Below, piece by piece: positions 6,698 through 55,043 of a DNA stretch of 64,000 nt (within the stretch, counting starts at the first letter, position 1; the number at the start of each line of letters is the position of its first letter). The DNA is taken from IMG/VR virus record IMGVR_UViG_3300020156_000001, positions 170,321 to 234,320 of that record; one strand, written 5' to 3'. The notes beneath the pieces are model-generated. The model searched no databases. It worked only from the letters and a program-made list of their open reading frames with translations, and was not told where the DNA came from. The stretch is from a virus (lineage: Duplodnaviria; Heunggongvirae; Uroviricota; Caudoviricetes). A program made the translations under genes and the position numbers.

Positions 6698-7957
6698 TCA
6701 ATTCGTGCCAGTGCTTGGAGCTTCAGCATAAACGAGAATTGCTGGAGCATCGCTTGCAAAGAAATGGTCACTTAGAACAACCTTCTCAACACCAGCGGCT
6801 TTGAGATCGGGCAGTTCGTATTGGATCTTGAGCAGCTTCTTCTCAATAACATTGCGAAGACCACGCGCACCAACCTTACGAGTTTTTGCTGTTTCCGCAA
6901 TATGTGTGAGTGCAGCGGGTTCAAACACTAGCTCAACACCATCAAGCTTGAATTGCTTTTCAAACTGACGGACAACAGCATTCTTTGGTTCAGTTAGAAC
7001 TCGTACCAGCTGTTCCGCATTTAGTTCCTCAAGATGAGCAACAGTTGGAAGACGACCAATAAGTTCGGGAATCAAACCATACTTGGCAAGGTCTTCAGCT
7101 TCCACATGCGCCATTAGCGAACCATTGTGCGTGAGACGAGTTGCTTCTTCACGAACTTTTGCACCAAAACCAATGGAAGAACCATTGCCATCCATGCGCT
7201 TTTCGATAATAGCTTCAAGACCAACAAACGCACCACCAACGATAAACAAAATGTTCTTTGTGTTGATAATAACAGTATCGGAATTTGGATGCTTGCGACC
7301 ACCCTGTGGGCTAACGCGAACTTCGCTACCTTCGATGATCTTTAGCAAAGCCTGCTGAACACCTTCACCCGAAACATCGCGTGTAATGCTGAGGTTTTCG
7401 CTCTTCTTGGCCTTCTTATCGATTTCGTCCAAGTAGATGATACCGCGCTCGCACTTTTTGACATCGCCATCAGCCGAGCTTAGCAAGCGTGTGATAATGC
7501 TTTCAACATCATCACCAACATAACCAGCTTCAGTAAGTGAAGTAGCGTCGGCAATTGCAAACGGTACATCCAACATACGAGCGATGCTTTGAGCAAAAAG
7601 TGTTTTACCCGAGCCAGTTGGACCCATCAGCAAGATGTTGCTCTTCTCTAGCTCAACACCGTCAACTGTTGGATTATCCAAACGCAAGTAGTGATTGTGA
7701 ACAGCCACGCCAAACACCATTTTAGCGTCTTCTTGTCCAATGATGTATTGGTCGAGGAATTCTTTGATTTTGCGTGGGCTTGGGATTGTTTCATCGACTG
7801 TGATTTCGTTTGCTGCGGGCTTTTCTTCTAGGATATCCGCACAAAGCTTGGTGCATTCATCGCAAATGAAAACGTCCGGTCCTGCGATCAACTTCTTTAC
7901 TTCGTGCTGGCTTTTATTGCAGAACGAGCAAAAAAGGCTTTTAGCTTTATCAACCAT
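6698..7957 (-). CDS. clpX: ATP-dependent protease ATPase subunit ClpX
   Basis: N-terminal zinc-binding domain [26 protein letters not shown]. Walker [12 protein letters not shown]-like loop and a full-length AAA+ body. Confidence 0.92.
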
Positions 7958-7987
7958 TAAACTGCCCTTTTTATTATTGTTGAATAT

Positions 7988-18226: not shown

Positions 18227-18474
18227 CTCAACTTGAACAGCAAGCGATCATTTTCCGTCTTGAACGCAATGGTTTCACAACTCGTATACGCGACTTGTAT
18301 ATTCTCGTCTGCAAGCCATTGTTTTAGTTCTGGTCGAACAACGTTGTCCCGTTGCGCGTTGTAAGTGGCACCGTTCCAAACCAATCTGGTTAACGTTTCG
18401 AATATCTTTTCCTGTGGAAATTCAAGTTCAAAAGGAAATTCCACTTCTCGATCGACCGTACTAAGCTGCATCAT
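18217..18474 (-). CDS. LFKLRW-family small protein E (85 aa)
   Basis: C-terminus ENDRLLFKLRWA. RPELKQWLADEN. Confidence 0.55.
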   Translation of the reverse strand: MMQLSTVDREVEFPFELEFPQEKIFETLTRLVWNGATYNAQRDNVVRPELKQWLADENIQVAYTSCETIAFKTENDRLLFKLRWA

Positions 18475-20005
18475 GTTCCAATTTCCTCAACATTGCAGTG
18501 GCCTTGTCCTTGTACAGGAACAAGGTTGCATAATCCACATTTGGGCCCAGATTTGCATGGGCCATCATAAAATCATTACCGGCTTCAACACTTTTTGCCA
18601 CAATTGGTTCCAACCGGTCCATAGCGATCTGCATCATCTCGTGCATATTGTGCCAGTAGGCGTAGCGGTCCTGTTCGTACTTGCTCCACGTGTAATGGGA
18701 AACTTCCCAAACATACAATTGGGACTTGTCGGGAAACACCTTATCAAAGTGCGCCAACATTTCCTCGCATGGATGATGACCCTGCGCCCAACGTGTTTTG
18801 AAGAACCGCAGGATCTGGCCCATTTGTGGACCCGGTTTAACGCCACGTGCCATCAGATCTTTACCAGTGATCGTAAAGCGATCGAACGTGCTGTTATAGA
18901 TGACTTGGTTATCTTGATCCAGCATTTTGAATGCGATGGTTGAGATAATGTTGGCTTGCGTGATATGCTCTGCAACCATTACCGCAGCAGCTTCTAATTG
19001 TGGATCCGAACCATTCGTAGTGTTCAAGTAGAAGTGACTTTGGATCGCTTCTACGCTATCGAATGGGCACGTCATGTAAAAGCTGATGATCTTGATCATG
19101 TAGTCGTAAGCACGACGCTCGCTTGAAGAAAACTTCAAACGTTCTGCCACAATTTCGTACGACTTTGGATCAATATTGCAGACCAACACTGCCATGACCA
19201 ATGCCTCAACCATAACGGGATGGCATCTCAGGCGATCTTCAAACCGCTTCATCGCCATCAAAATGGTATGGCCAACACGCCGATACTCTGGACCGTTGAT
19301 TGTTTCCCCGTTGCCCAGGGTTTCCATCAGCTTTGTGCCAAAGACCAACCTCAATGCGTCTCCCGCATGTGGCGCGGTCAGGATCTTTTTCAGTTCAGCC
19401 CAAATACGTTCACCGCTCAACCCACGCATACCCTCATGAACCCATGGCATGTTGAACAGCTGGTAGATGCTTTGTGGAGCCTCAGAAACAGCCGTCTTTG
19501 CAAAGAACCTCACATATCGCCAAACACGCAGGTAATCCTCACGAACACGTTCATTGGGATCACCAACAAACATGATAACACCGCGTTTCAAATGATCGCG
19601 ACCTTCAAAGTAGTCGTAGATGTGGCCGTTGATGTCCATGCTCATCGCGTTCATTGTAAAGTCGCGACGTTCTGCATCCAATTGGAAGTCTCGAGTGTAT
19701 TCAACCTTGGCATGACGGCCATCGGTTTCAACATCCACACGCAAAGTGGTAACTTCAAAGGGCTCACCGCCCATCATAAACGTTACCGTGCCGTGCTGCA
19801 AACCCGTTGGGATCACATACAAACCATGCTGTTCAGCCAGCGCCATCATTTCATCTGGCGTAGCATTGGTGCACAGGTCGATATCCTTTGGCTTCAAGCC
19901 CAAGCACAAGTCACGAACGGCGCCGCCAACAACACGAATTTCGTATCCGCTGTCGACGAAGATTTCCGCCAATTTCATCAAGTACCTGTTGTTGAATACC
20001 AACAT
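18461..20005 (-). CDS. class-II tRNA nucleotidyltransferase (CCA-adding enzyme / poly(A) polymerase family)
   Basis: Head-domain motif RVVGGAVRDLCLGLKPKDIDLCT (GGxVRD ... DxD). 514 aa with a long C-terminal body. Confidence 0.8.
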   Translation of the reverse strand: MLVFNNRYLMKLAEIFVDSGYEIRVVGGAVRDLCLGLKPKDIDLCTNATPDEMMALAEQHGLYVIPTGLQHGTVTFMMGGEPFEVTTLRVDVETDGRHAKVEYTRDFQLDAERRDFTMNAMSMDINGHIYDYFEGRDHLKRGVIMFVGDPNERVREDYLRVWRYVRFFAKTAVSEAPQSIYQLFNMPWVHEGMRGLSGERIWAELKKILTAPHAGDALRLVFGTKLMETLGNGETINGPEYRRVGHTILMAMKRFEDRLRCHPVMVEALVMAVLVCNIDPKSYEIVAERLKFSSSERRAYDYMIKIISFYMTCPFDSVEAIQSHFYLNTTNGSDPQLEAAAVMVAEHITQANIISTIAFKMLDQDNQVIYNSTFDRFTITGKDLMARGVKPGPQMGQILRFFKTRWAQGHHPCEEMLAHFDKVFPDKSQLYVWEVSHYTWSKYEQDRYAYWHNMHEMMQIAMDRLEPIVAKSVEAGNDFMMAHANLGPNVDYATLFLYKDKATAMLRKLEHDAA

Positions 20006-23773: not shown

Positions 23774-23782
23774 GGAGCTAGG

Positions 23783-24904
23783 ATGACTGCTTATTTTAAG
23801 ATCCACAAGCTTCCCGCTCTAGGCTTGCTTATGAAAAATGGAATCCCACTTCAGGTGGGATCCAAGTTCACTCAAAGCGATATCAACGAAAATCGTATCA
23901 CTTATCGTCACACTGCGATAACTGGTCAGAACGCATTGGACTCGTTTGATTTTACGCTTTGGGATTCCGAGCTTGGTGCCATTACAACTTCCTCTTATGG
24001 TCCATGTATGCCACCTAGAGATATTGAAACCCCTGCTGATGGTGTGTTTCGTTTTGCTATCTCTATCCTAAATGTGCCACCGATCAACACGGTTACACCG
24101 GATACGCTTGAACTGCTTGAAACCGAAACCCTTACTTTGACAATGGGTATCTTTAACGTGGTCAACGCGGGATTTACTCCTGATCAAGTTATCCACACCC
24201 TGCGCAAGCCACTATCTCACGGATATATCACATTGCGCGGTAAACGCTCATCCACGTTTACTCAAGCCGATGTAAATGCAGGTGACGTAAAGTATGTGAA
24301 CACGCACGTAGGCACTGGTATCGAACGTATTGAAGTAACATCATGCAACTTGCGTAGCGGCTGCATTGATTTTGATTTTACCATCAACATTTTGGAACGT
24401 TTCAAGATTACCGGCGACAACGTTATCTACGTAAAGACGGGCAGCCGTTTTGTTTGGGAATTTACAGCAAATCGTCCATCAGTGCTTTGGTCACTATCCG
24501 GTGGAACTGAGGAACGTCCACCATATGCAACGGAACGTGACCTCTCAATCATAGGTTGGTCTTCCTATGCAATGTCAAGCGATCAACCCTATGATAGCGA
24601 AGGCCGTGGTCCGGGTTATGATAAGTTGTTCCGCAACGTAAGAGAGACATTGTATTGGGATGGTGGGCTTCCAAAGGGAATATATTTGAGCAACATTGGT
24701 TACATGACCTGCTCACTTCGTAACCCGCCAAGTCTTGCAGGAAGCCAACATTGGACAATCCCAAACACTCCGGGTGAATATCCGTTTGAGATGATTGCCT
24801 TTGATGCCACAACTGGCCAAATGGATTCCCGTAAATATATGCTAGTCGCGACCATGTCTGGTTTCAGCGGCAGTGGCCTAAGCTCGGAAAGTAAAGATCT
24901 ATGA
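23783..24904 (+). CDS. repeat protein (373 aa) with cadherin/VCBS-like repeats
   Basis: NRITYRHTAITGQNALDSFDFTLWD and GDVKYVNTHVGTGIERIEVTS. Stop overlaps the next gene's start. Confidence 0.65.
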   Translation: MTAYFKIHKLPALGLLMKNGIPLQVGSKFTQSDINENRITYRHTAITGQNALDSFDFTLWDSELGAITTSSYGPCMPPRDIETPADGVFRFAISILNVPPINTVTPDTLELLETETLTLTMGIFNVVNAGFTPDQVIHTLRKPLSHGYITLRGKRSSTFTQADVNAGDVKYVNTHVGTGIERIEVTSCNLRSGCIDFDFTINILERFKITGDNVIYVKTGSRFVWEFTANRPSVLWSLSGGTEERPPYATERDLSIIGWSSYAMSSDQPYDSEGRGPGYDKLFRNVRETLYWDGGLPKGIYLSNIGYMTCSLRNPPSLAGSQHWTIPNTPGEYPFEMIAFDATTGQMDSRKYMLVATMSGFSGSGLSSESKDL

Positions 24905-27900
24905 ATTTACACGAACACGCCGTCATTGAAGAATATGACAAGTACGCGATCTTTGAATTGACCAAGATTCCAACACGTGGTAACCTGCTTTTGGATGGCG
25001 TTATCATGAAGGTTGGTAGTCGCTTTACTCAAGGCGATCTACGTAACGGTAATCTCAAGTACAAGCATACGGCAAACGAAGGTATGGCCAAGATCGCTTA
25101 TGATGCGTTCTTCTTCAGAGTTCCAATCAATGACAAAGCTGTTGTTGATGAAAACACCAAGTACAGCAAATGTTTGCCTGTAAGTGGTGGCCCAAAGGGC
25201 GGTGAATTTAAGTTCCCAATTATCATCACTGTGCTTCCTTATCCTCAGGAACTTCGCAATGTTGAAATAAACATTATGGAAGACCAAACAGTTTGCTTGA
25301 ACAAAGGTCACTTGTTCTATTCTTCTGATACAAAAGAAGTTCAGCAGTATTTTAAAAAGCCTGATGTTCAGATTGAAAAGGGCGGCAACGAAGCTTTTTA
25401 CTTTTGGAAGCGTTTTGCTGGCGATGTAAGCTTTGAAAACGTAAGCAAAAATGCCCCACCAAGCAGTGATGCCCACACTTGGGCATATAATGCGGAAACC
25501 CGCGGCATCTACAACATCAAGAATACTTCCAACTACACTGGTATGGTAACAACTAGAACCAGTGAAAGCTTTATGATGGCTTCTACAATGAGTTCCAATG
25601 CGGCGGATGACGACGTTATTGGTATGGTTGTAGCTTATGCGGAAGAAGATGGCGTTCCTACCACAATCAGCGTTGTTCGTTCCGGTGGCTGGAATGGAAC
25701 CGGTGCAAGTACCCTTACTTGGGCTATTATCCAAACCAAGGGCAACAATCGTACTATTCTAAAGAACGGAAGCGATACAGCTAAGAACCTATTGGGTAAC
25801 ACCAAGGGCCAAGCTTGGGACAAACTTGGATATTCACGTGTTGAGGTAAAGCGCGAAGGTACTAAAATTATTGCCAAGTGCAGCCAGTTTAGCGGCGCAA
25901 CAAATGGCGCACCAAATGCGGTAACTGCAATCGATGATTCCACAACTATGGAATTCACATTGCCCGCACCATTTAACTTGCCTTGCCAATACGGTCTAAG
26001 TGCGATGTCTCAGGCCGGCGCCACATTTGATGATATTGAATGGGCTGAGTTGCCTTATCCTCCGGCAGATCCACCAGAGCCGGATCCTACTTTGGATCCT
26101 ATGTTCGAACGTTTTCCAATTACCTATACCGTAAGCAGCAAGTCGAGCGAAGCATCCGCTGAGTTCCTTCTCAACGGAAAGCCGATGAAGCCCGGCGATA
26201 CCTTTACAAATGGTGACATATCAAATGGTTTGATTTGCGTAAAGGGCAAAAACGCAGGCGCTGGTGCAGAGTTCTTCTCTTTCTCAGCATGTGTGAACTC
26301 GGTAAAATGCACAAGCGGAACATTCAAGGTTAAGGTAACTCCTTGGCCATATCCAAAGATGGAAAAGAATTCCGCTACTATGGAAGAATGCTCGGAAATC
26401 ACAATCAACGATAAGAACATGTTGTTCACAGTTGAATTTGGTTCCACTGATTCCGATATCAAGATTACTCTTAATGAAACGCAAACAGCCGCTGACAATC
26501 CAGATGGTCGTGTCGAGGTTATTCCTAAGACATTCACTATGGCCGATGTTAAGGCTGGCACAGTACGACTCAAGCACGCTTGTGATACTGTGGTGTGGAC
26601 TGAAAAGCTTACATTTGATGTATGCACGAACCACAATAAGTGCGTGAGCAAGCCATTCTACGTTAAGATCACTCCAATCCCAGTTGAAGAAGAGCCTGCA
26701 CCCGATAACATTCAAGTTAGCGAACAGGGTTGCGTTTACAAGCTAAACTTCTACGGTGTTTGGGCTCCAGTTGGTGATTGCGGTCTTTGGGCTGATCTAA
26801 AGGGTCGCGTATTGCCTGAGCCTAAAAATGAACCCACTGGTAAGATCCTATACGTAAAGCACGCGCTTCCTGAACCCGTAACTTTGGTTGCTTTGCCAAA
26901 GCCAGAGAAACCAACTGAAAACAAGTGGTTTAAGAGTCCAGTTCAACTGCCTGCACAACCTGAACCATCAGATGGTTGTGAGCCGTTGCCACCGGAACCA
27001 ACACCAGCCCAGCTACCAACCGAGCTACAAGACTACATTATTGAAATGGAAGCTTGGGGTGATTATGGTGCAGGTCCTCCACTGTTTGACGTTATTGCAA
27101 CACAAGCCGTTGGTGGTATGAAGTGGATTGCCCGTGATGAACCAATCTCCGATCTAAAGGAGCATGGTCAAAAGGGTCGTCAATACTTTAGCTGGCGTGT
27201 TCCTGCGGCAGTTTGGGGCAATGGTCGTGACATTGTTATCGACTATGTTCAAAACGAACCTCCTGGTGCCGCAACAGACCGTAACATGTACTTGTACTGG
27301 GTAAAGGTCAACGGTAAGCTTTATGACTTTGGCGGTTCTGGCCGTTATATTGATCGTGCGGATGTTGAACGCCGTGGTCTAAACTATGACCATTGCCGTT
27401 GGACTATTTCGGATGATTTCCCTCTCCCACCATACCAGCTTCCTGCTCCAGTACCTGCGGAAAAGCCTGATACAGTTGCCAAGCAAAAGGTTCCTGCAAA
27501 ATGCTTTACTGATCCAAAGACCGGTACTAAGTGGATCACAGACCAAAACGGTGTATATCATCCAGTTGGAAAGCCAACGGATAAGTTGGAAGACTTTGAT
27601 GCTACCCCGCTTATCAAGACTCAACCATTCCTAGTTGAAGTGGAAGATCTTGCAAGTGTTCCAGCGGAATGGCCTGGTCCGGTTCTACACAAGCCAACAA
27701 ACAGCGTTTACACGAAGGTCAACGACGAATACGTTCACGTAAAGCAGCCGTTTACTGAATCTTATAAGCTGGATGAATTCCAGTTTATTGGAGCCAACGA
27801 GTTCTGGCTACAGCATGGCGCAACGTTTGACTTCTTCTTGTTCAGCAACCGCTTCTACGTGCGTTTCGATATTATGGGTGAATATGGTCACTCGATTATC

Positions 27901-28866
27901 GAACAATCCAACCCGATCATCATGGATCTTGGTGGATCGTTGGTTGGTAGTGGTGCAAGCATTTTGGGCAATCGTACAAACAACTACAATAACCAAAACC
28001 GCACATCACGCATTCCAAATGCGATGGGAATGTGGCCACGTCGTTACTGTCAGGTGGTTTCGCCAATCACTACAATGTGGGACGGTATGATCCAAAACAG
28101 CACAAGCATGCCATACTATCATGACAGGAACAACAATGGTATGAACCCATACCATCACGGCACTTACTTGATCAAGCTCGCGGGTACTGAATCCTATGCA
28201 GGCTTTGTTGCAAGTCAGCGTCCAAAGTTGGTACCCGAGCGTTGGACCGGAACAAAGTTCTGGAACCCTGATACAAAGAAGGGCTTTGGTCTAGTAAAGA
28301 ACCAAAAGGTTTGGCATGATATGACCACTGTTTGGTCACACAGCGGCTATGGTAGTGCTCCTAGCCAGATGGAAGGTGTTCGTAACAACGGTTATGGTAC
28401 TCACACACAGGCTATTGCCTACGGTGGTATCGAATTTGGAACTTATAATCCTTGGCTACATTTTGAGTCTTGGAAGATTCCTCAGAACACTGCATTCAAC
28501 CCACCGGAAGCTCCACGTGGTTGGTGCAATGGTATGCTTACGTTCCTAGATTACTCCTCAATCTACGACTCCAAGGAAATGCGCAATGGTGGTCCTGTTG
28601 AATCATCTCCACCGCGTAAGGACTACACAATGGAGTTCAAGGTTCGCGGTTATGATATCGCAACAGGCGAGGAAAAGTTCCGCACGTATCGCGTTCACTG
28701 GAACGCAACGGGTACGAACAAAAAGGGACAAACAAAGGCAACCACAGATGCAACGACGACAGGACTAACTGGATTCCTGCCGCCGAAGCCAAAGACAGCG
28801 GTTTGCTACTTTGATGACTTTAACGTCCCAGGCAACTGCCGTATTTTGGACGATAAAGGAAAGTAA
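24901..28866 (+). CDS. giant protein (1321 aa): N-terminal cadherin/VCBS-like repeats plus a distinct W/Y/G/N-rich C-terminal half
   Basis: GNLKYKHTANEGMAKIAYDAFFFRV at the N-terminus. The C-terminal 600 aa is non-repetitive and aromatic-rich. Confidence 0.65.
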   Translation: MNLHEHAVIEEYDKYAIFELTKIPTRGNLLLDGVIMKVGSRFTQGDLRNGNLKYKHTANEGMAKIAYDAFFFRVPINDKAVVDENTKYSKCLPVSGGPKGGEFKFPIIITVLPYPQELRNVEINIMEDQTVCLNKGHLFYSSDTKEVQQYFKKPDVQIEKGGNEAFYFWKRFAGDVSFENVSKNAPPSSDAHTWAYNAETRGIYNIKNTSNYTGMVTTRTSESFMMASTMSSNAADDDVIGMVVAYAEEDGVPTTISVVRSGGWNGTGASTLTWAIIQTKGNNRTILKNGSDTAKNLLGNTKGQAWDKLGYSRVEVKREGTKIIAKCSQFSGATNGAPNAVTAIDDSTTMEFTLPAPFNLPCQYGLSAMSQAGATFDDIEWAELPYPPADPPEPDPTLDPMFERFPITYTVSSKSSEASAEFLLNGKPMKPGDTFTNGDISNGLICVKGKNAGAGAEFFSFSACVNSVKCTSGTFKVKVTPWPYPKMEKNSATMEECSEITINDKNMLFTVEFGSTDSDIKITLNETQTAADNPDGRVEVIPKTFTMADVKAGTVRLKHACDTVVWTEKLTFDVCTNHNKCVSKPFYVKITPIPVEEEPAPDNIQVSEQGCVYKLNFYGVWAPVGDCGLWADLKGRVLPEPKNEPTGKILYVKHALPEPVTLVALPKPEKPTENKWFKSPVQLPAQPEPSDGCEPLPPEPTPAQLPTELQDYIIEMEAWGDYGAGPPLFDVIATQAVGGMKWIARDEPISDLKEHGQKGRQYFSWRVPAAVWGNGRDIVIDYVQNEPPGAATDRNMYLYWVKVNGKLYDFGGSGRYIDRADVERRGLNYDHCRWTISDDFPLPPYQLPAPVPAEKPDTVAKQKVPAKCFTDPKTGTKWITDQNGVYHPVGKPTDKLEDFDATPLIKTQPFLVEVEDLASVPAEWPGPVLHKPTNSVYTKVNDEYVHVKQPFTESYKLDEFQFIGANEFWLQHGATFDFFLFSNRFYVRFDIMGEYGHSIIEQSNPIIMDLGGSLVGSGASILGNRTNNYNNQNRTSRIPNAMGMWPRRYCQVVSPITTMWDGMIQNSTSMPYYHDRNNNGMNPYHHGTYLIKLAGTESYAGFVASQRPKLVPERWTGTKFWNPDTKKGFGLVKNQKVWHDMTTVWSHSGYGSAPSQMEGVRNNGYGTHTQAIAYGGIEFGTYNPWLHFESWKIPQNTAFNPPEAPRGWCNGMLTFLDYSSIYDSKEMRNGGPVESSPPRKDYTMEFKVRGYDIATGEEKFRTYRVHWNATGTNKKGQTKATTDATTTGLTGFLPPKPKTAVCYFDDFNVPGNCRILDDKGK

Positions 28867-30324
28867 TTAGGAGGCCTTTTTCAGGGCCTCCTTTAGCTTG
28901 GACTCCGCGCTTACAAGCTCGTTTGCAGCAAGTACGCGCTGAGCCCGTGCTTCCTGCGTGATGGCAATCGATTCCTCGATCATAGCAATCGTCAAATCGT
29001 TTGCCTTCTTCACGCTTTCGATGTCATAGACACCACGTTCGATTTCACGACGCGCCGCTGCATTGCCCTGCTTGAGAGCTTCGGCATTCTTGACCAGCAG
29101 TTCGTTTTGCAAGTCGGAAACTGCCTTGGTTGTTTTCGTGGCCTCGTCCATCTTCCACCGCTCAACAGCGATAACAAGCTGGCTTTCCCACATTGGAATC
29201 GTGTTGATCAACTGAGTGTCGATCTTCTGCACGAGGTCCTTGTCGTTGTTCTGCACAAGCCGAACCTGCGGCAGCGTTTGCATAACAACCGTACGTGTAA
29301 GCTTGATGTCGTGGACACGACGTTCAAACGAATCGCGCTTGGCAACAAGATCGTTGAGGTTCTGCGCGTCAATAAGTTCGCCTGAAGCTTCGGCCTTTGC
29401 CTTGAGTTCTGGAATATGCTTGGCATCAAGCTCGGCGAGGATTTGTTCACCCGCGCTTACATAGTTGCCGAGATCACGGAAGTATTCGAGAGTTGCCGCA
29501 TAAAGCTGATCCAGCTGCTTTACGCTTTTCAACAGTTCCACCTTGTGGCGTTCCAGCTTGTTTGCAACCGCATCGATCTGGCTCTTGACGGTTTCAAAGC
29601 TTTGGATGAATTCGGCCATTGGCGCGATCTTGCCCATTAGCTTGCCGAAAAAGCCGATCTCGTTGGAACCAGCAGCCTTGGAAAAGTCCAGCCCGCGCAT
29701 CTGCAGGACCATCTTGTTGAGCTCACTGCCCACTTCGCCGGCTTCGTTGGACTTTACGCCCTCAAGCATCTGGGCGTTAAGCTGACTTACGTTGCGCTGG
29801 ATGCCTGTACCCCAGCTGATAACGCTGGTGCTATCATCCAAGTTAAGCTCGGCTTTGGCTTTTTCAATCTTGTCGGCTTCGACAACCATTGCCTTGTTGA
29901 TGTCATCCTCGGTCAGCTTTGCCGTGACCGCCACCGGCAATTGAAGTTCCATTGTTCGCTCCGTGTTAATTCGATGGGTTAATCGTTGAATGTCAGGTCG
30001 TTGCATTTGCTCCAAAAGCTCACCAAACATTTTGGCTTGGTCATGGAGGTATTGTGGAAACTGTTGATGGATTTTTGGATCCAATGCAACCGCGCGAGAA
30101 TAAACTTCGATGGAATCTGCAATTTCTTCTACAAGCGGTTTCATCCGCATGAGAATAGCGTGGCCCATTGTACTGCGCTTGCATTCGTCCATGATCATGT
30201 CGATCCGCTTATAGATCAACAGGATTTGTTCATCCACTCCCCATGACAACCGCTTGCCAGTGGCGCGAACAATTTTCCAGTTCACCCTTTCGACAGTATC
30301 GTAAAGCTGCTCAAAATTCATCAA
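28867..30324 (-). CDS. TelA-like (toxic anion resistance family) protein
   Basis: 485-aa all-helical protein whose architecture and C-terminal region are reminiscent of TelA/YaaN. Operonic with XpaC-like and flotillin genes, as in known TelA contexts. Based on recollection of the family, not a search. Confidence 0.55.
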   Translation of the reverse strand: MMNFEQLYDTVERVNWKIVRATGKRLSWGVDEQILLIYKRIDMIMDECKRSTMGHAILMRMKPLVEEIADSIEVYSRAVALDPKIHQQFPQYLHDQAKMFGELLEQMQRPDIQRLTHRINTERTMELQLPVAVTAKLTEDDINKAMVVEADKIEKAKAELNLDDSTSVISWGTGIQRNVSQLNAQMLEGVKSNEAGEVGSELNKMVLQMRGLDFSKAAGSNEIGFFGKLMGKIAPMAEFIQSFETVKSQIDAVANKLERHKVELLKSVKQLDQLYAATLEYFRDLGNYVSAGEQILAELDAKHIPELKAKAEASGELIDAQNLNDLVAKRDSFERRVHDIKLTRTVVMQTLPQVRLVQNNDKDLVQKIDTQLINTIPMWESQLVIAVERWKMDEATKTTKAVSDLQNELLVKNAEALKQGNAAARREIERGVYDIESVKKANDLTIAMIEESIAITQEARAQRVLAANELVSAESKLKEALKKAS

Positions 30325-31010
30325 CGCTGCTCCAGCTTGAGCTGGTCGTTGAGAACTTCCATATCGATAGCAAGTGCGCGAACATCGTTGGACCGAATGT
30401 CCGTGAGCAGATTGTTAAAGCTCACATACATGGTATCAACAGTTTTACCAAAATCTTCATCTAGTCGAATCCGCTCGGCCGTTCGTGCTTGGTATTGATT
30501 GCTTGTGTAGCCCGTGTGTTGGAGTTCAACAAACTTGCCTACAATGCTTTGGGCTTGATCCAAATGCACGTTAAACCAGCTACGCGCGATACGGAAGTCT
30601 TTGGGATCATTAACAATCTCTTCGATGATCCCGTTACCCACGCTTACCACCCCAAGTACCTTATACTTTAGGTCGGTGTCTACAAGACGCGTAGAAGCTT
30701 CACGGATCGCGGCAAGCTTGGATTGTGCGCCACGTATTTCAGCGGAAAACTCGTTGAGATTGATATCTGTACGGCCCTCCAAATGCTTGAACTCCAAGCG
30801 TTTGAGTTGGGAAAGTTCCTGTACAGCTTCTCGATTGTCGAGCACACCCAGCATATTATCTGCAAGCTTCATCGAAATCCATCCCGCAACAATTGCAACA
30901 GCCGTTGCAATCATAAACGTGATAACGGAAGCGCCTAGAATTTGGACCAGACCATATCCGGCCAGGATAGCCGCAATAATACCGATCAAAGTGCTGAGAA
31001 TCTTGTTCAC
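30321..31010 (-). CDS. XpaC-like membrane protein (two N-terminal TM helices plus helical domain)
   Basis: N-terminus ILSTLIGIIAAILAGYGLVQILGASVITFMIATAVAIVAGWI gives two TM helices. A roughly 180-aa helical domain follows. Sits directly next to the TelA-like gene (start overlaps), as the xpaC-yaaN pair does in Firmicutes. Confidence 0.5.
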   Translation of the reverse strand: MNKILSTLIGIIAAILAGYGLVQILGASVITFMIATAVAIVAGWISMKLADNMLGVLDNREAVQELSQLKRLEFKHLEGRTDINLNEFSAEIRGAQSKLAAIREASTRLVDTDLKYKVLGVVSVGNGIIEEIVNDPKDFRIARSWFNVHLDQAQSIVGKFVELQHTGYTSNQYQARTAERIRLDEDFGKTVDTMYVSFNNLLTDIRSNDVRALAIDMEVLNDQLKLEQR

Positions 31011-31126
31011 AAGTTCATCCTAGCTAACACAATTTTGCCCACATATTACACGAACAGGTACCAAAGTCTAGCGTTGATATGGCAAAAGGCTCCAAAAGAG
31101 GAGCCTTCGCCGTTATTGTATTTGGA

Positions 31127-32845
31127 TTACTTGCCCGACTTTTCAGCCTTGATGCCGGCCAAACGCTGAAGCTCTTCCGGATTGTAGCTTTCAACCGGTG
31201 CTTTGGGCGTTGGAACGCTTTGCACTTCTTCTTCGACTTGCTCAGCATCGTCAAAGTCGAATGTGCTTGCCGGCACAACACCAGCGAGACCATTCTTCAG
31301 ATCAAAGCCAGCGGCACCAACAATTGCATCAACAAGCGGAGCCTGTGTGCGATAGTTTAGCAGGGCGTTGGTAAGATCCTGTGGAACATTTCCAGCCGAA
31401 CCGCCGCCAACTGTTGCGCCACCATTTGCACCAAGACCCGAAATGCTGACCACACGAGCCGACTTTACTGCGGCCATTGGCTTTGCAAGTTCAGCAACCA
31501 ACTGCGGTGCAGCTTCGATTGCTGCAAGCTTGATACGCAGGGCGATCTGCTCTGGGCTCAAAGCGTTGGCAGCATCAGCAAGCGCACGTTCACCAGCAGC
31601 ACGGACTTCGTTTTCACGCTCGAGAACATCTGCAAGCGTTTTACGTGCCTGGGCCTGCAAATCAGCTGCTTCAGCTTCCGCCTTTGCGCGAACAGTAATG
31701 CCTGCGCTTGTACGTTCAGCTTCCTTGGTCGCTTCAATAACAGCAACCTGACGATCACGTTCCGCCCTGGCAATTGCTTCCTCGGTGATAACGTTCTGCG
31801 CTGCCTTAACAGCGTTTGCACGAGCTTCGTCGGCCTTTGCCTGTGCAAGCGATTCAGCTTCCGAACGCTCGTTGACCGCGATCTTGGCCGCCTGTTCAGC
31901 AATACGAATTGCTTGCGTATTGGTGATTTCAGCTTCCTGACGGGCACGAGACGATGCTACGCGAGCAAGTTCAGTTGCCTGTTCCGCCTCGATTGTTGCA
32001 ACATCCGCTTCACGCTTGCGATCAGCACGTTGCTTTGCAAGTTCAGCTTCCTGTTCGGCACGCCGAGTTTCAACTTGCTTTTCCTGATCAAGACGGGCGA
32101 ACTCGTCCTGTTGCTTGATGGTCAGCGACTCCTGGTTCGCTTCAAAATTGCGCTTTTCAATAGCAACGCGAGCTTGCTGCTCGATTTCGTTACGTTCACG
32201 CGCCTTTTCCTGCGTTAGCTTGGCTAGGTTGGTGAGACCTTCAGCATCAAACGCATTGTTTGGGTTGAGGAACTTCTGGTCCGTCTGGTCAAGCTTGGTA
32301 AGCGAAACGCTTTCCAGTTCGAGACCGTTCTTTTCCAAGTCCGCAGCAACCGTGTTTTGCACGTTCTGTACAAACTCAGCGCGTTGTTCGTGCAAGTGCT
32401 GCATATCCATGCCAGCTGCAACCGAGCGAAGCGCGTCAACAAACTTGTCTTCAATGATCTGACGAAGCGCGTCAGGATTCATCGTTTTTGTACCAAGTGT
32501 TTGCGCGGCCAGTGCAATTGCATTGGTGTCAGGCTTTACACGAACAAAGAAGGTCGCGCCCACGTCTGCTCGCATACGATCCTTGGTGATCAAGGCGTCT
32601 GTGCCAGTACGAGTAAGCTCGATCTTGAGCGTTTGCATGTTAACTTCAAGCGTTTCATGCAGGATTGGGAAGATCAACGCACCGCCGTTGATCACGACCA
32701 GCTGACCTGTAAAGCCCGTACGCACAAACGCACGTTCCTTTGAAGCTCGCTTGTAAAGTCGGGAAACCATCAGGCCGACGATCAGGATTGCCACAAAAGC
32801 AATCACAATAATCATACCCAAGGTCACAAGGTTTGTATCAAACAT
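31127..32845 (-). CDS. flotillin / SPFH (band-7) family protein, YqiK-like, with long EA-rich coiled-coil
   Basis: N-terminal TM helix. SPFH-domain region (... LVVINGGALIFPILHETLEVNMQT ...). Then an extended EA repeat coiled-coil (AEQEAELAKQRADRKREAD ...). C-terminal flotillin-like tail. Confidence 0.85.
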   Translation of the reverse strand: MFDTNLVTLGMIIVIAFVAILIVGLMVSRLYKRASKERAFVRTGFTGQLVVINGGALIFPILHETLEVNMQTLKIELTRTGTDALITKDRMRADVGATFFVRVKPDTNAIALAAQTLGTKTMNPDALRQIIEDKFVDALRSVAAGMDMQHLHEQRAEFVQNVQNTVAADLEKNGLELESVSLTKLDQTDQKFLNPNNAFDAEGLTNLAKLTQEKARERNEIEQQARVAIEKRNFEANQESLTIKQQDEFARLDQEKQVETRRAEQEAELAKQRADRKREADVATIEAEQATELARVASSRARQEAEITNTQAIRIAEQAAKIAVNERSEAESLAQAKADEARANAVKAAQNVITEEAIARAERDRQVAVIEATKEAERTSAGITVRAKAEAEAADLQAQARKTLADVLERENEVRAAGERALADAANALSPEQIALRIKLAAIEAAPQLVAELAKPMAAVKSARVVSISGLGANGGATVGGGSAGNVPQDLTNALLNYRTQAPLVDAIVGAAGFDLKNGLAGVVPASTFDFDDAEQVEEEVQSVPTPKAPVESYNPEELQRLAGIKAEKSGK

Positions 32846-32858
32846 TTGCTTACCTTTT

Positions 32859-33494
32859 TTAGTGGATTGGAGTTACGTAGAAGAGGCCAAGAACAGGGTC
32901 ATATTGTTCCAAGCGAACTGTTGTGCGTTCAGGGATAACGAGCCCCTTAGTGACACTGCGCACGGTAACGTTGTGCTGAGTACCATGCGTGTCGTAAACC
33001 GTAGCTTGGCAGCTACGATCAAAAGTTGCCGCTCCATAGCCAATCACACCAGTCAACCCTTCGAGGTCTTCCAATGTGCTGGCATAAGTTTCATCGCGTG
33101 GAAGAACCTTTACCAACAACTTACTAAGTGTGCCGGAAACTGCGAGAGCCGATGGAATAGCCAGTGCAACTGCAAGAGGAATGGGGAGAAAAATCCCAAC
33201 TGCGGACATTGCAACCCAGTTATAAAGCAGACCGCTTATTCCAAACGATGCAATCAGTACGGTAAGCACCATCATAAATGGAACTTTACCAAATCCTAGA
33301 AAGCCCGCAAAGTGGCCGAAGACCCCATCATGGTCGATATGAAAATGATGGTCGATGTTGGTATCGTGGCCTAAGAATGAGAAACCAACAACTAAGCCAA
33401 TAAGTTCCATAAAACCAATGGCTGCAACGATTGCCAACGCTCCCATGAAGGGAAAGTTGGCATCGCTGAAAAAGAACCCCATCATGCGGTTCAT
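32859..33494 (-). CDS. NfeD/YqiJ-like membrane protein
   Basis: Multi-TM N-terminal half with a His-rich loop HDTNIDHHFHIDHDGVFGH. Soluble beta-rich C-terminal domain. Immediately upstream of the flotillin gene, as in the yqiJ-yqiK pair. Confidence 0.5.
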   Translation of the reverse strand: MNRMMGFFFSDANFPFMGALAIVAAIGFMELIGLVVGFSFLGHDTNIDHHFHIDHDGVFGHFAGFLGFGKVPFMMVLTVLIASFGISGLLYNWVAMSAVGIFLPIPLAVALAIPSALAVSGTLSKLLVKVLPRDETYASTLEDLEGLTGVIGYGAATFDRSCQATVYDTHGTQHNVTVRSVTKGLVIPERTTVRLEQYDPVLGLFYVTPIH

Positions 33495-37589: not shown

Positions 37590-38177
37590 ATGATTGCACT
37601 TCTTCAAATTTTGGGAGTTTTTGCAGCGGCATTGGGTTTTGCCGCAGCACTTACAAACCATCTCTTCCTAGGGATTCTCTTCCCAATCGGCGCCACACTC
37701 TTTTACATTGGCTATGTTCTGCGCAACCGTGCAACTGAACGTACCATTAGGGAAGCGCAAGCGGATGTTCGTACCCGTTATCCCGTTACTTCCATCTATC
37801 GTCCAATCGCGGCCACTGGTATGACCACACCACCGCCAATGCCAAACAAAACACCACGCCGTAAAGATGCACCGCTTCGTTCCGCAGTTATGTTGGATGA
37901 TGAACGCAAACGCCAGCAGCGTGATGAAGAAGAGCGTGATCGTCAGCGTCGCAACAATGACACCGTTTATACGGATAATTCGGCCGGCTGGATGATGATG
38001 ACTGGTGCGATGGATAACAGCCGGAATGATGATGACGATCGCAAAGTTGTAACTCCCTCATACAGTGAACCCAGCAGCTCAAGCAACGATTCCTATAGTA
38101 GCGGTTCCGATGGCGGCTATTCCGGTGGCGGCTATTCCGGTGGCGGTGATGGCGGTGGCGGAGGTGGTGGCGACTAA
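37590..38177 (+). CDS. membrane protein with Gly-rich C-terminal tail
   Basis: Two N-terminal TM helices. Basic/acidic central region. C-terminus SDGGYSGGGYSGGGDGGGGGGGD. Confidence 0.5.
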   Translation: MIALLQILGVFAAALGFAAALTNHLFLGILFPIGATLFYIGYVLRNRATERTIREAQADVRTRYPVTSIYRPIAATGMTTPPPMPNKTPRRKDAPLRSAVMLDDERKRQQRDEEERDRQRRNNDTVYTDNSAGWMMMTGAMDNSRNDDDDRKVVTPSYSEPSSSSNDSYSSGSDGGYSGGGYSGGGDGGGGGGGD

Positions 38178-38183
38178 AAGGTT

Positions 38184-38212
38184 GACATCTCTAGTTGGGT
38201 CTGTTTAAATAC
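38184..38212 (+). promoter_or_regulatory. sigma70-like promoter (TTGACA-17-TTAAAT) for the tmRNA precursor
   Basis: The -35 and -10 hexamers with 17-nt spacing lie directly upstream of the acceptor-piece sequence. Confidence 0.5.
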
Positions 38213-38221
38213 GGATGAAGC

Positions 38222-38281
38222 TGTTGATACAATCTCAATAGTTGCTGCAGGACTGGGGAGCGTTACCCCACGCCTCCACCA
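38222..38281 (+). ncRNA. ssrA: two-piece (permuted) tmRNA, 3' acceptor piece, ending ... CGCCUCC-A-CCA
   Basis: UGGGG-AGCGUUA-CCCCA hairpin (T-arm analogue) at 38254..38270. Acceptor 3' strand CGCCUCC at 38271..38277. Discriminator A. Encoded CCA at 38279..38281. The 5' boundary is approximate. Confidence 0.75.
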
Positions 38282-38383
38282 CAAGCAGATGCGCACTTTC
38301 GTGCGTGGCGGGTAAACGGTTAAATCCAATCCGGCGGGCACCGAGCGGTGTCCTGGTAGCGGTCGCTACAATCTGCTTATGAT

Positions 38384-38563
38384 GGGGGCGAAGTAGGATC
38401 GACTGGGCGACGAACGGTGCGAGTAGGTTTCCGGCATGATACCGCCGTTATCGGGTCGAAAAAAGTAAATGCAAACGATAACTCCGTTGCATCCCAGCCG
38501 GTAGCTCTCGCTGCCTAAGTTGGATGAGCTTTAGTGGATACGCTTGGAAACAGGACCACTCTT
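38384..38563 (+). ncRNA. ssrA: two-piece (permuted) tmRNA, 5' coding piece with tag reading frame ANDNSVASQPVALAA*
   Basis: 5' end GGGGGCGAAGUAGGAUCGACUGGG closely matches canonical tmRNA 5' ends. GGGGGCG pairs with the upstream CGCCUCC, including a G3·U wobble. Tag ORF GCA AAC GAT AAC TCC GTT GCA TCC CAG CCG GTA GCT CTC GCT GCC TAA at 38471..38518. Confidence 0.85.
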
Positions 38564-38588
38564 AAAACCGGCTTCGGCCGGTTTTTTG
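38564..38588 (+). terminator. intrinsic terminator (CCGGC-UUCG-GCCGG + U6)
   Basis: GC hairpin followed by TTTTTT. Confidence 0.8.
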
Positions 38589-38607
38589 CTGACTACAAAG
38601 GTGTTTA

Positions 38608-38850
38608 ATGTCTCGTATCACTTATACTGACTACCACGCACGTGGTTTTTACTTGACTTGGTACGTTGTGTTATTAGGGTCGGACGCTTACTTCTATGAG
38701 TACGAAGTGGCCGAAAGCATATGGGACCACTTAAATACGCAAACAACGGATGATTGGTGTGTTTGCACTAGGCTTGATGTCTGTCTCAGCACATACATCA
38801 GCTTTAAAAATAAGCATGATGCATTGGTGTTTAAGCTGGCGTATGGTTAA
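38608..38850 (+). CDS. LFKLRW-family small protein F (80 aa)
   Basis: C-terminus KHDALVFKLAYG. Confidence 0.5.
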   Translation: MSRITYTDYHARGFYLTWYVVLLGSDAYFYEYEVAESIWDHLNTQTTDDWCVCTRLDVCLSTYISFKNKHDALVFKLAYG

Positions 38851-38912: not shown

Positions 38913-39872
38913 ATGGTATTCAGACCAAATGAACTCAAGTTTACAGACTTGATGGCTGCCACACCCCATGGTACTTTGGTGGTGAATTCCCAAGGGCAAA
39001 TCGTTTTCTCAAACCATCAGGTTCACAACCTGTTTGGCTTTACTGAAGCAGAACTTCATGAGCAAAACGTAGACATACTGGTACCCAATGCCGCGCGTGG
39101 CTTCCACCACAATAATCGGAACACATATAATGCGGCTCCGCATCCACGAAGCTTTCCTGCGTCTGCAGGGCTGCATGGACAGCACAAGGATGGATCGCTG
39201 ATTCCCGTAGAGATCAGCTTGACGCCATTTGAAACAACTGCTGGAAAATTTACCCTAGTCAACATTATCGACATTACTGCCCGTAAAAAGGCAGAAGATA
39301 TGCGCGAAGTGTTGATCAAGGAACTAAACCATCGCGTAAAGAACAACATGGCTGTGGTAACTTCAATTGCCACGATGACACGCAAGTACACGGACAATAT
39401 CGACGACTTCTTTCTCGCTTACTCTGGCCGTATGAACGCGTTGAGTGCGGCGCATGATCTTGTGGCTTCCATGTTTTGGGATGACACTGATGCAAAAAGC
39501 TTGATTGTCAACGTGTTACGACCATTCCATCAAGCCGAACGTTTTCATATCTCTGGTGGTTATGCTAGAGTTCCTGCGAGTTCGGCAGCCACACTTGCTA
39601 TTGTTTTTCATGAACTTGCCACAAACGCTCTAAAGTACGGTTCATTACGAAGTGCCGAAGGACGTGTTGACATTTCATGGGAATTCAACAATAACAATGG
39701 AGTGGAATTCAATTGGATTGAAACTGGAGGGAATCCAATTGAACGTCCTACCAAGCGGGGGTTTGGTACGACAATGATTGAACGTACCATTACCAAAAAT
39801 TTCGGCGGCACCATCGACATGGATTATCGTCCAGAGGGGTTGCATTGTAAAATCGTTACTGAAAGGCTCTAA
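38913..39872 (+). CDS. PAS-domain sensor histidine kinase, HWE / HisKA_2 family
   Basis: N-terminal PAS (VVNSQGQIVFSN). ELNHRVKNNMAVV phospho-acceptor box. HELATNALKYG ... ISWEF ... NWIETGGNPIE gives the H, W and E residues of HWE kinases. Confidence 0.8.
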   Translation: MVFRPNELKFTDLMAATPHGTLVVNSQGQIVFSNHQVHNLFGFTEAELHEQNVDILVPNAARGFHHNNRNTYNAAPHPRSFPASAGLHGQHKDGSLIPVEISLTPFETTAGKFTLVNIIDITARKKAEDMREVLIKELNHRVKNNMAVVTSIATMTRKYTDNIDDFFLAYSGRMNALSAAHDLVASMFWDDTDAKSLIVNVLRPFHQAERFHISGGYARVPASSAATLAIVFHELATNALKYGSLRSAEGRVDISWEFNNNNGVEFNWIETGGNPIERPTKRGFGTTMIERTITKNFGGTIDMDYRPEGLHCKIVTERL

Positions 39873-39876
39873 ACTC

Positions 39877-40230
39877 ATGGCTAAGATCGTTGTTGTTGAG
39901 GATGAGTCTTTGATTCTTATGGTTGTGGTGGATCTTCTAGAAGAATTGGGGCATGAAGTGGTAGATTTTGTAAATGCGGAAACCGCGCTCAACTATATTG
40001 GCAAAGGCAATCAATTCGACATTCTCATGACGGACATGAATCTTCCAAAGATGAGTGGTCGTGAGCTTGCAGAGCAATTGCGGGAACTAACTCCGGATCT
40101 GCCCGTTATCTTTGCAACCGGTTATGTTATCGGCCGGGATGACCGCCTCAGCGCACCATTTTCCTGCGTAAGCAAACCCTATTGGTCTGATAATTTGAAA
40201 ACCGCCATAGGTGAGGTTTGGACAAAGTAA
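39877..40230 (+). CDS. single-domain response regulator (CheY-like receiver)
   Basis: KIVVVEDESLILMVVVD ... DILMTDMNLPKMSG ... PVIFATGY gives the receiver Asp pocket, the phospho-acceptor D in MTDMNLP, and the T/K positions. Starts 5 nt after the kinase stop. Confidence 0.8.
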   Translation: MAKIVVVEDESLILMVVVDLLEELGHEVVDFVNAETALNYIGKGNQFDILMTDMNLPKMSGRELAEQLRELTPDLPVIFATGYVIGRDDRLSAPFSCVSKPYWSDNLKTAIGEVWTK

Positions 40231-43347: not shown

Positions 43348-43387
43348 CGATCTACTCCTCTGTTTCCAATATTTATTGGAAAAGTAG

Positions 43388-52488: not shown

Positions 52489-52582
52489 TTCATACCTTCC
52501 AGTTACGGGAAGTTGCTTAATTTATAACTATTTATTCTGACGTGGATCTCTTAGCGTCTGGAAAGCCAACCAAACGTCCGTG

Positions 52583-54970: not shown

Positions 54971-55043
54971 TCACAATACTCCAGTATATTGTTATATTTA
55001 TATGGGGTGCAACTTCTAATAAATATTCAACACGCACTGGTAA

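Follow-up and report, generated by a model that had tools for sequence, protein, structure and literature searches.

A permuted, two-piece tmRNA gene of alphaproteobacterial type in a lineage of soil jumbo phages

A gene for a transfer-messenger RNA (tmRNA) was found in a 64-kb stretch of viral DNA (IMG/VR record IMGVR_UViG_3300020156_000001, positions 170,321 to 234,320; hereafter, the window). The window is part of a 480,361-bp metagenomic jumbo-phage contig, the single contig that carries the window's proteins. Borne by a phage, it encodes a two-piece tmRNA of the alphaproteobacterial type in circularly permuted order, whose tag ends in the ClpXP-type sequence ALAA, and it is almost certainly a functional gene.

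Identification of the tmRNA gene

An initial annotation, made from the letters of the DNA, had proposed a permuted tmRNA gene in this part of the window, and direct reading of positions 38000-38800 found all of its elements where that annotation had placed them. ARAGORN independently called a permuted tmRNA (tmRNA*) at 38185-38609, with the same tag, ANDNSVASQPVALAA. When the whole window was scanned against 4227 Rfam families, two covariance models matched over their full length and far above their gathering thresholds: RF04321, tmRNA_permuted (112.8 bits, gathering 47, E = 3.4e-21), and RF01849, alpha_tmRNA (106.9 bits, gathering 50, E = 3.3e-28). The elements are not a chance pattern; they stand far above chance.

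The gene order is permuted, as had been claimed, with the CCA end (38281) upstream of the first nucleotide of the coding piece, G1 (38384), on the same strand. The acceptor piece contains the UGGGG/CCCCA hairpin followed by CGCCUCC-A-CCA (38254-38281) that were first noticed, and the intervening spacer, initially put at about 100 nucleotides (nt), measures 102 nt. The GGGGGCG start of the coding piece pairs with CGCCUCC and includes the G3·U wobble; this pairing, too, had been read correctly and is also present in relatives. Both ARAGORN and translation returned the expected resume codon GCA and 15-codon tag ending in ALAA-TAA, the window frame reading GCA...GCU CUC GCU GCC UAA. The coordinates of all parts, together with those of two protein genes discussed below, are given in Table 1.

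Table 1. Positions of the tmRNA gene, its parts and two related protein genes in the window
Feature	Position	Strand	Description and basis
ClpX	6698..7957	-	Pfam zf-C4_ClpX, AAA_2, ClpB_D2-small
CCA-adding enzyme (tRNA nucleotidyltransferase)	18461..20005	-	PHROG 2244, Pfam PolyA_pol
Putative promoter, sigma70-type	38182..38210	+	-35 TTGACA 38182-38187, 17-nt spacer, -10 TTAAAT 38205-38210
Acceptor (3′) piece, about 62-65 nt	38218..38281	+	Rfam alignments; 5′ end inferred from promoter; includes 3′ strand of helix H2
T-arm of acceptor piece	38254..38270	+	UGGGG-AGCGUUA-CCCCA
3′ end of acceptor piece	38271..38281	+	CGCCUCC 38271-38277, discriminator A 38278, encoded CCA 38279-38281
Intervening segment, exactly 102 nt	38282..38383	+	Multi-hairpin fold, then UUAUGAU leader
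Coding (5′) piece, about 205 nt	38384..38588	+	ARAGORN, Rfam, comparison with relatives; starts with GGGGGCGAAGUAGGAUCGAC
Acceptor 5′ strand of coding piece	38384..38390	+	GGGGGCG, with G3 of G3·U; followed by D-loop-like SmpB-binding region AAGUAGGAUCGAC, H2 5′ strand, pseudoknot PK1, tag frame, terminator
PK1 stem 1	38432..38447	+	CGGC 38432-38435 : GCCG 38444-38447, within motif CCGGCAUGAUACCGCCGUUAUCGG; modelled in RF04321
Tag frame	38471..38518	+	Resume GCA, 15 codons giving ANDNSVASQPVALAA, TAA; ARAGORN and translation
Intrinsic terminator	38564..38588	+	AAAACCGGC-UUCG-GCCGGUUUU, then U-run

Conservation of the gene in related phages

The only relative in the phage collection was Sinorhizobium phage Phosso (PV764938.1, 469 kb, isolated on S. 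meliloti), whose ClpX is 83.5% identical to that of the window and whose DUF7217 protein, which flanks the tmRNA upstream, is 60% identical. The permuted gene occurs in Phosso as well, in the syntenic place (113.3 and 108 bits with the Rfam models); it is located at 2972-3661 of locus L001 (about 349,553-350,242 of PV764938.1, minus strand) and is unannotated in GenBank. ARAGORN did not find the Phosso tmRNA, evidently because of its 410-nt spacer, but the Rfam models detected it with ease. Genes of this kind escape standard annotation if their spacer is long, and counts of phage tmRNAs based on ARAGORN are probably underestimates.

Using the DUF7217 flanking protein as a handle, we recovered nine further loci (L199 to L207) from independent ENA, Logan and JGI assemblies. 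Seven of these (L200, L201, L202, L204, L205, L206 and L207) had a permuted tmRNA at the same spot, scoring 70-130 bits, and in L199, the closest relative of the window, the acceptor piece and spacer were present before the contig ended. In Phosso and the seven loci with full copies, the gene has the PAAR/DUF7217 genes on one side and the tail-collar gene on the other. Together with the window, these copies make up a set of ten syntenic loci (window, Phosso, seven full copies and the partial L199). The phage origin of the element is thus supported by synteny in an isolated phage and eight further assemblies, as well as by structural and replication genes on both sides of it. Genes of the window include those for virion proteins, a tail collar fibre, both subunits of a T4-type topoisomerase II, a CCA-adding enzyme, the initiation factor IF-3 and ClpX. 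Its G+C content stays at 45-50% throughout, with no break in composition near the tmRNA.

Other searches for relatives were less productive. An exact 23-mer from H2 (GAACGGTGCGAGTAGGTTTCCGG) had no match in IMG/VR, from which neither the tail-fibre protein nor the flanking DUF7217 protein retrieved any clade member. One metagenome scan with a 19-mer (GGTGCGAGTAGGTTTCCGG) gave no tmRNA, its two matches being due to chance and located in GC-rich coding DNA. At least 46 IMG/VR contigs carry the same acceptor-piece motif. The regular-expression (regex) parser used on viral loci missed 19 of the 26 that contain the PK1 motif, none of which is closer to the window than Phosso.

Base pairing was maintained across these copies in spite of sequence change. 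In the clade, the acceptor stem switches between GGGGGCG/CGCCUCC and GGGGCUG/CAGCUCC, and is GGGAGUG/CACUUCC in L207, with G3·U always kept; four co-varying variants of this stem occur among viral copies. Between the window and Phosso, the acceptor stem and H2 each have two compensatory pairs, and PK1 has a single one, a change from C-G to U-A in stem 1. Pairs were then counted in a set of 27 spliced sequences, made up of those of the window, Phosso, 20 bacteria and 5 other viral contigs. Pairing was complete (100%) in the acceptor stem and T-arm, where three and two pairs, respectively, were changed on both sides. Proximal H2 was 95.7% paired, with five of its six pairs changed on both sides, and PK1 stem 1 was 98% paired. 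The G3·U pair, an identity element for alanyl-tRNA synthetase (AlaRS), was invariant (27/27). None of 500 shuffles reached the observed values, and controls in which the pairing was slid were 38-51% paired.

The acceptor pairing and the ALAA-stop frame, whose conservation the initial annotation had left to be checked, are therefore both conserved in relatives, with compensatory changes in the former and whole-codon insertions and deletions in the latter. This pattern indicates that the gene is under selection as a tmRNA, with purifying selection acting on the RNA. Since the promoter, stem, tag frame and terminator are conserved while the spacer and the middle of the tag vary, the gene is to be regarded as functional and not as a host fragment. 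More generally, the ten loci separate the constrained parts of a permuted tmRNA gene (promoter, tRNA-like domain, H2, PK1, resume region, ALAA end and a leader with U at position -1) from those that are free to vary (spacer and middle of the tag).

Some viral copies showed unusual features. L200 and L201 have near-identical flanks and identical tags, yet differ in a patch of about 35 nt that spans PK1, some 50-85 nt after G1 in the coding piece (CAUGAUACCGCCGAUAUCGGGUCA versus UAUUGUUCCACCGUUAUCGGGCUA). The UAUUGUUCCACCGUUAUCGGGCUA variant resembles that of Phosso and those of the viral contigs L179 and L182, and the patch looks like gene conversion or recombination between tmRNA alleles. The copy in L207 (5361-5631) is divergent, with a canonical tRNA-like T-loop (GGGAGUUCAAAUCUCCC), a 10-nt spacer and the tag AANNNVASEMALAA, and lacks the alpha-type PK1 motif. 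Moreover, three IMG/VR contigs (L179, L180 and L195, of 256, 55 and 77 kb, respectively) carry a permuted tmRNA with the unusual acceptor stem GGGCUAG/CUAGUCC; the tag frame given by the regex parser for these, ANEFWRLNLETESTAASIFRKKFE, is long and odd, and the true resume codon is uncertain.

The tag peptide and the origin of the gene

Tags of the clade are 13-15 codons long, differ in length only by multiples of three nucleotides and always end in ALAA-stop. They form a family, ANDN-(V/S)-rich...(V/M)ALAA, that includes ANDNSVASQPVALAA, ANDNVSTKVALAA (Phosso), ANDNVVSSKVALAA and ANDNVVASKVALAA. For comparison, we parsed 92 alphaproteobacterial tmRNAs that share the PK1 motif, which yielded 90 complete tags of 10-14 amino acids (mode 12). 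The initial expectation that the phage tag would not be that of the host was borne out, as ANDNSVASQPVALAA differs from all 90, including the Rhizobiaceae-type tag ANDNYAEARLAA. Rhizobiaceae-type genomes gave either ANDNYAEARLAA, obtained from genome loci L067, L146 and L148, or ANDNNAKGYALAA. We take ANDNYAEARLAA to be the tag of S. meliloti itself; a literature search for the S. meliloti tag string gave nothing. At tag position 5, Y or F was found in 43 of the 90 bacterial tags and V in 11, and the clade tags have no aromatic residue there. The middle of the window tag is rich in V, S, Q and P, and no such middle occurs among the 90 bacterial tags.

The PK1 motif CCGGCAUGAUACCGCCGUUAUCGG is common to more than 120 alphaproteobacterial genomes. 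The best identity to a bacterial copy was about 77-78% over about 132 nt, versus 82.8% over 174 nt to Phosso, a gap that points to long evolution inside the phage lineage after an alphaproteobacterial origin.

Promoter and terminator

The promoter proposed initially, TTGACA-17-TTAAAT, was upheld by its rarity and its conservation in the clade. The pattern TTGACW-N18-TAAAT matched once in the window against 0.12 matches expected. TTGAC(A/T) with 17-nt spacing is present in 10/10 clade loci, with unrelated promoter spacer sequences, and the -10 box is (T/G)TAAAT in nine of the ten loci and TATAAA in L207. The same 17-nt spacing is found in the sigma70 consensus of S. meliloti, which the window promoter fits (PMC2245857). 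The element would thus act as a sigma70-type promoter, with a predicted transcription start at about 38217.

The intrinsic terminator was likewise supported, by its fold energy (-13.9 kcal/mol, z = -3.4) and by covariation of its stem. It is identical in Phosso and co-varies in L200, L204 and L205; the stem variants in the clade are CCGGC/GCCGG, CCCGC/GCGGG and CCAGC/GCUGG. A simple promoter and terminator scanner called neither the tmRNA promoter nor the terminator, because its own rules need an A at the second position of the -10 box and measure the T-run after the fully extended stem.

A second type of box occurs elsewhere in the window. Eight (T/A)ATAAATA boxes were found, at 7985-7992, 54995-55002, 58675-58682 and 63339-63346 (all on the minus strand) and, as AATAAATA boxes with one mismatch, at 20083-20090 (+), 43370-43377 (-), 52529-52536 (-) and 55018-55025 (+). 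All eight of the NATAAATA boxes are intergenic, in a window that is 91% coding, and lie 18-40 nt 5′ of gene starts on the same strand; they are probably T4-type late promoters of this phage. Transcription of the tmRNA from such a late promoter was considered and is disfavoured, its box being TTTAAATA or TGTAAATA with a conserved -35 element at 17 nt. The marine viral tmRNA copies have a TATAAATA box upstream, and the L207 promoter has both features, TTGACT-N17 and a full TATAAATA box. Given a sigma70-type pair that is unlike the late boxes, the tmRNA would be transcribed by unmodified host polymerase, probably early in infection.

The intervening segment

In the window, the spacer is predicted to adopt a multi-hairpin fold closed by AGCAGA/UCUGCU (-44.8 kcal/mol, z = -3.86). 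Compared with L199, and thus between two sequences only, this fold had 28 pairs with 6 compensatory changes, 4 one-sided changes and none broken. The UUAUGAU leader precedes G1, and U is found at position -1 in 10/10 clade members; this is a predicted site for RNase P. A permuted gene gives a chargeable RNA only with its spacer removed, and the segment would for this reason have to be excised during maturation.

Spacers of the clade range from 10 to 410 nt, with a median of 173 nt, compared to a median of 35 nt and a maximum of 107 nt in bacteria. The longest are those of Phosso (410 nt, L001 3081-3490) and L201 (409 nt, 7651-8059). The 156-nt spacer of L200 (7651-7806) corresponds to the first 154 nt of the L201 spacer, with 98.7% identity. 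In addition, L201 and Phosso have in common a module of about 260 nt beside G1, with 83% identity. This module had no Rfam match and no convincing open reading frame (ORF), and its fold scored only slightly better than those of shuffled sequences (z = -2.07); possible identities are a mobile insert and a co-processed RNA. When riboswitches or other known RNAs were looked for in the gene and the spacer, none was found.

Proposed function and alternative explanations

The gene organization suggests the following mechanism. Transcription by host RNA polymerase with sigma70 would start from TTGACA-17-TTAAAT and stop at the intrinsic terminator, and in the resulting single precursor, of about 370 nt, the structured 102-nt intervening segment would hold both halves together. 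RNase P would cut 5′ of G38384, after the UUAUGAU leader, and tRNA 3′-end nucleases would trim the other half to the CCA at 38281, leaving an acceptor RNA of about 64 nt base-paired with a coding RNA of about 205 nt. Host AlaRS would charge this RNA through G3·U, and host SmpB and EF-Tu would deliver it to ribosomes stalled on broken mRNAs. Translation would then resume on GCA and add ANDNSVASQPVALAA, the ribosome would be freed, and the tagged protein would be directed to ClpXP by its C-terminal ALAA. For the phage, the benefit would be a host ribosome pool that stays free while infection damages mRNA, and the reuse of amino acids from unfinished proteins. It is established tmRNA biology that AlaRS charges the RNA through G3·U, that SmpB and EF-Tu deliver it, that translation resumes on GCA with tagging and ribosome release, and that ClpX reads a C-terminal LAA. 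Moreover, the two-piece tmRNA of S. meliloti itself has been observed as RNAs of 82 and 204 nt (PMC2245857), and the presumed host group therefore has the processing machinery. We consider host-dependent ribosome rescue of this kind very probable.

Several points weigh against this account. Transcription, processing, charging, trans-translation, degradation of tagged proteins by ClpXP and any gain for the phage all lie beyond the DNA level and have been deduced from it. In L203, the most distant of the nine loci, there is no tmRNA at the locus, and the related phage Atu_ph07 is reported to be without one (PMC11242549); the gene is therefore dispensable for the wider lineage. As for the pseudoknots and the joint pairing of the two pieces, which the initial annotation had proposed to check, proximal H2 and PK1 stem 1 were supported; distal H2, in a region that MAFFT misaligned, pairs poorly and carries non-canonical marks where the window is aligned to the Rfam model, and the pseudoknot support covers PK1 stem 1, with no stem 2 assigned. 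Finally, we searched for SmpB and ClpP with E. coli sequences (100% match to E. coli records). With SmpB, tblastn gave only noise in the 64-kb window (E > 0.5); no Sinorhizobium or Agrobacterium phage was among 68 SmpB-bearing phage records, and no SmpB was detectable in the complete Phosso genome. The function would therefore rely on compatibility with host SmpB.

The initial annotation had also suggested that the phage supplies its own axis of tagging and degradation, a proposal that stood only in part. The ClpX gene that it named is genuine, as shown by its Pfam domains and by alignment to solved ClpX chains (8e91, E = 2.4e-144), with conserved C4 zinc finger, Walker A and B motifs, and GYVG pore-1, RKH and IGF (SSIGFG) loops. 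The remainder found less support: SmpB was not detected in the window or in Phosso, clpX is not linked to the tmRNA, lying about 30 kb away on the opposite strand, with a late-type TATAAATA box (7985-7992, minus strand) 27 nt upstream, and ClpP was found only in relatives. There was no ClpP within the window, nor was any close homologue assigned to the window's contig among the 120 best ClpP matches; a true ClpP, with 63.9% identity to the E. coli protein, is encoded by Phosso and by Atu_ph07. ClpX is thus a possible unfolder of ALAA-tagged proteins, and a functional link between it and the tmRNA is conjectural. The lineage carries the RNA and the degradation half without the SmpB cofactor, and would therefore borrow SmpB, AlaRS, EF-Tu and RNase P from the host.

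As an alternative, the RNA might serve to redirect degradation. In such a scheme, the phage tmRNA would compete for SmpB, and a phage-specific tag would favour the phage's own ClpX/ClpP or escape host adaptors (SspB-alpha), with the result that the phage would control which proteins are destroyed and when. The tags of the clade are indeed a family of their own (ANDN-V/S-rich-ALAA, 13-15 amino acids versus mostly 12 in bacteria), without the common aromatic at position 5 and with none equal to a bacterial tag, and the lineage has ClpX, accompanied by ClpP in Phosso and Atu_ph07. However, the tag keeps the universal ANDN start and ALAA end and would be readable by host ClpX, and V at position 5 is shared with 11 of the 90 bacterial tags. 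The recognition loops of the phage ClpX are canonical, with nothing that points to altered specificity, and clpX and the tmRNA, 30 kb apart, differ in promoter type. In addition, Atu_ph07 has ClpX and ClpP yet is reported without a tmRNA, which indicates that the Clp genes are independent of the tmRNA. On balance, we find redirected degradation unlikely. A semi-orthogonal form of quality control, in which an early phage tmRNA would work with host SmpB and its tag would be tuned to late phage ClpX/ClpP or away from host adaptors, with spacers released as functional small RNAs or acting as mobile inserts, is in our view quite unlikely.

Three other explanations were considered. The phage copy might be a spare part that replaces the host tmRNA when defence or stress nucleases cleave translation RNAs, just as the tRNA-like gene and the CCA-adding enzyme would replace or repair tRNAs. 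These two genes and IF-3 do lie in the same window, and one published account includes the view that phage tRNAs evade tRNA-targeting defences (PMC10264068). Nevertheless, neither this analysis nor the literature consulted revealed a defence system directed at tmRNA, and, with functional regions of the host type retained, escape from a sequence-specific nuclease is not obvious; this role appears improbable. The failure to find SmpB in the window or in Phosso would also fit an inhibitory decoy, an RNA that titrates host SmpB and shuts down host trans-translation, as proposed for mycobacteriophage DS6A, and phage tmRNAs reduced to an inhibitory tRNA-like domain offer a precedent (PMC4131195, PMC11915505). 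Unlike DS6A, however, the window gene has a complete resume region and an ALAA-stop frame conserved in the clade, which a pure decoy would not need, and we give this explanation very little weight. As tmRNA genes are often integration sites and ssrA fragments occur in prophages (PMC9004378), the gene could, in principle, be a non-functional passenger, that is, a fragment of host ssrA left by imprecise excision, an attP-like site or a chimeric assembly. Yet it is complete, with its own conserved promoter and terminator, and occupies the same position in nine independent assemblies or isolates of a jumbo-phage clade of lytic type. Its lower identity to bacteria than to Phosso (about 77-78% versus 82.8%), a substitution pattern typical of a selected RNA and the uniform G+C content around it leave next to no room for a passenger, an explanation that the comparative data effectively refute.

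Other genes of the window

Some neighbouring genes are also related to translation. Possible targets of repair by the CCA-adding enzyme are the CCA ends of the phage tRNAs and that of the acceptor piece. The IF-3 gene (6076-6642, minus strand) directly follows clpX, which has the same orientation, and the two appear to form a clpX-infC unit. At 5478-5565 (-), ARAGORN called a 92-nt 'tRNA-Ile(tat)' with a long variable arm, an anticodon loop CUUAUAA (UAU) and a canonical T-loop. The Rfam tRNA model scored below threshold here, and the best match was to tRNA-Sec (35.7 bits, gathering 47, E = 1.6e-5). From these features, the gene is assigned to an unusual, class-II-like tRNA with a putative AUA-reading anticodon.

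Directly 3′ of the tmRNA, the window encodes a PAS and HWE-type histidine kinase (38913-39872, +) and a response-regulator receiver (39778-40230, +), which make up a phage-borne two-component pair; a further multi-PAS protein is encoded at 55305-56957 (+). HWE kinases are typical of Alphaproteobacteria. No Pfam domains of the HWE kinase or receiver were called in the corresponding interval of Phosso, L200, L202, L204 or L205. A conserved block at 28867-33494 (-) comprises TelA (toxic-anion resistance), a flotillin/SPFH protein and further genes. It is located upstream of the tmRNA region in the clade loci that cover it, and relatives add a Halogen_Hydrol-family and a YqiJ-like protein. Three consecutive ORFs at 20120-28866 (+), of 1217, 373 and 1321 amino acids, contain Cadherin_3 repeats (up to 275.8 bits) and have weak PHROG matches to virion or tail-fibre proteins; they probably encode giant, adhesin-like fibre proteins.

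Comparison with known tmRNA systems

Two-piece tmRNA encoded by ssrA is said to have been described in Caulobacter crescentus by Keiler, Shapiro and Williams in 2000. With the two-piece tmRNA of Alphaproteobacteria (RF01849), the window gene shares the permuted order with the CCA piece first, the 7-bp GGGGGCG/CGCCUCC stem with G3·U, the non-canonical T-loop, H2, the PK1 motif CCGGCAUGAUACCGCCGUUAUCGG, the resume context UAAAUGCAAACGAUAAC and a tag of the form ANDN...ALAA. It differs in being encoded by a phage, with a 15-amino-acid tag (bacterial mode 12), a 102-nt spacer and at most about 77-78% identity to the sampled copies, and in that no smpB was found in the phage (window and Phosso genome).

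Among phages, AP-J-162 (471.5 kb, 47.1% GC) belongs to the same group, and the clpX-IF-3-topoisomerase arrangement described for it is that of the window; 'tmRNA 1' is listed once in its genome table, which gives neither form, tag nor structure, so that the likeness drawn here is by description (PMC11242549). The tmRNA of Phosso, from a genome of similar size and G+C content, differs from that of the window in its acceptor stem (GGGGCUG/CAGCUCC), tag (ANDNVSTKVALAA) and spacer (410 nt). Phosso was cultured on S. meliloti, a tractable host with a two-piece tmRNA of its own, which makes it possible to test there what advantage a phage draws from a tmRNA of its own, above all when it has ClpX and ClpP and lacks SmpB.

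Phage tmRNAs have been catalogued since those of the Bxz1-type mycobacteriophages and Bacillus phage G (PMC4131195), and the 2025 tmRNA database holds 79 phage sequences (PMC11915505). Huge phages also carry tmRNAs, sometimes together with SmpB (PMC7162821). As in these phages and in DS6A, the ssrA of the window is phage-borne and located in a large genome rich in translation genes. Bacillus phage G and the Lak phages encode both ClpX and ClpP, and the Lak phages SmpB as well. However, the tmRNAs of those phages are unpermuted or, in DS6A, without a tag frame, whereas the window gene is permuted, with a full tag and no SmpB partner found.

The closest parallels in form come from the sea. Buchholz et al. 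(2022) reported that 402 of 18,146 phage genomes have tmRNA genes, with 133 unique tmRNA structures. Of these, 53 were two-piece according to ARAGORN, 50 of them in marine or aquatic phages (PMC9004378). An alpha-type two-piece ssrA was described in the OM43 phage Melnitz, and the roles proposed for marine phage tmRNAs were upkeep of the hijacked translation machinery or tagging for recycling (PMC9004378). The initial annotation was right in its identification and overstated the novelty of the gene, as phage two-piece tmRNAs had already been described (PMC9004378) and a tmRNA had been annotated in the closely related AP-J-162 (PMC11242549). The marine phages (Melnitz, pelagimyophages and cyanophages), T4-like myophages with a phage-encoded, alpha-type permuted ssrA (PMC9004378), nevertheless differ from the window in several respects. 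Their genomes are small or medium-sized and almost all aquatic, whereas the window gene belongs to a jumbo-phage clade of soil type. The Melnitz gene has a glutamine riboswitch, whereas none was found in the window gene. Furthermore, the marine copies have a consensus TATAAATA box and a different PK1, whereas this clade has TTGAC(A/T)-N17-(T/G)TAAAT and the PK1 of soil Alphaproteobacteria. A lineage of soil jumbo phages is thereby added to the phage two-piece tmRNAs, which had hitherto been almost only aquatic. Slightly beyond the published accounts of phage tmRNAs are the conserved, syntenic position of the gene in this clade, its phage-specific family of tags, and spacers that are unusually long, structured and modular.

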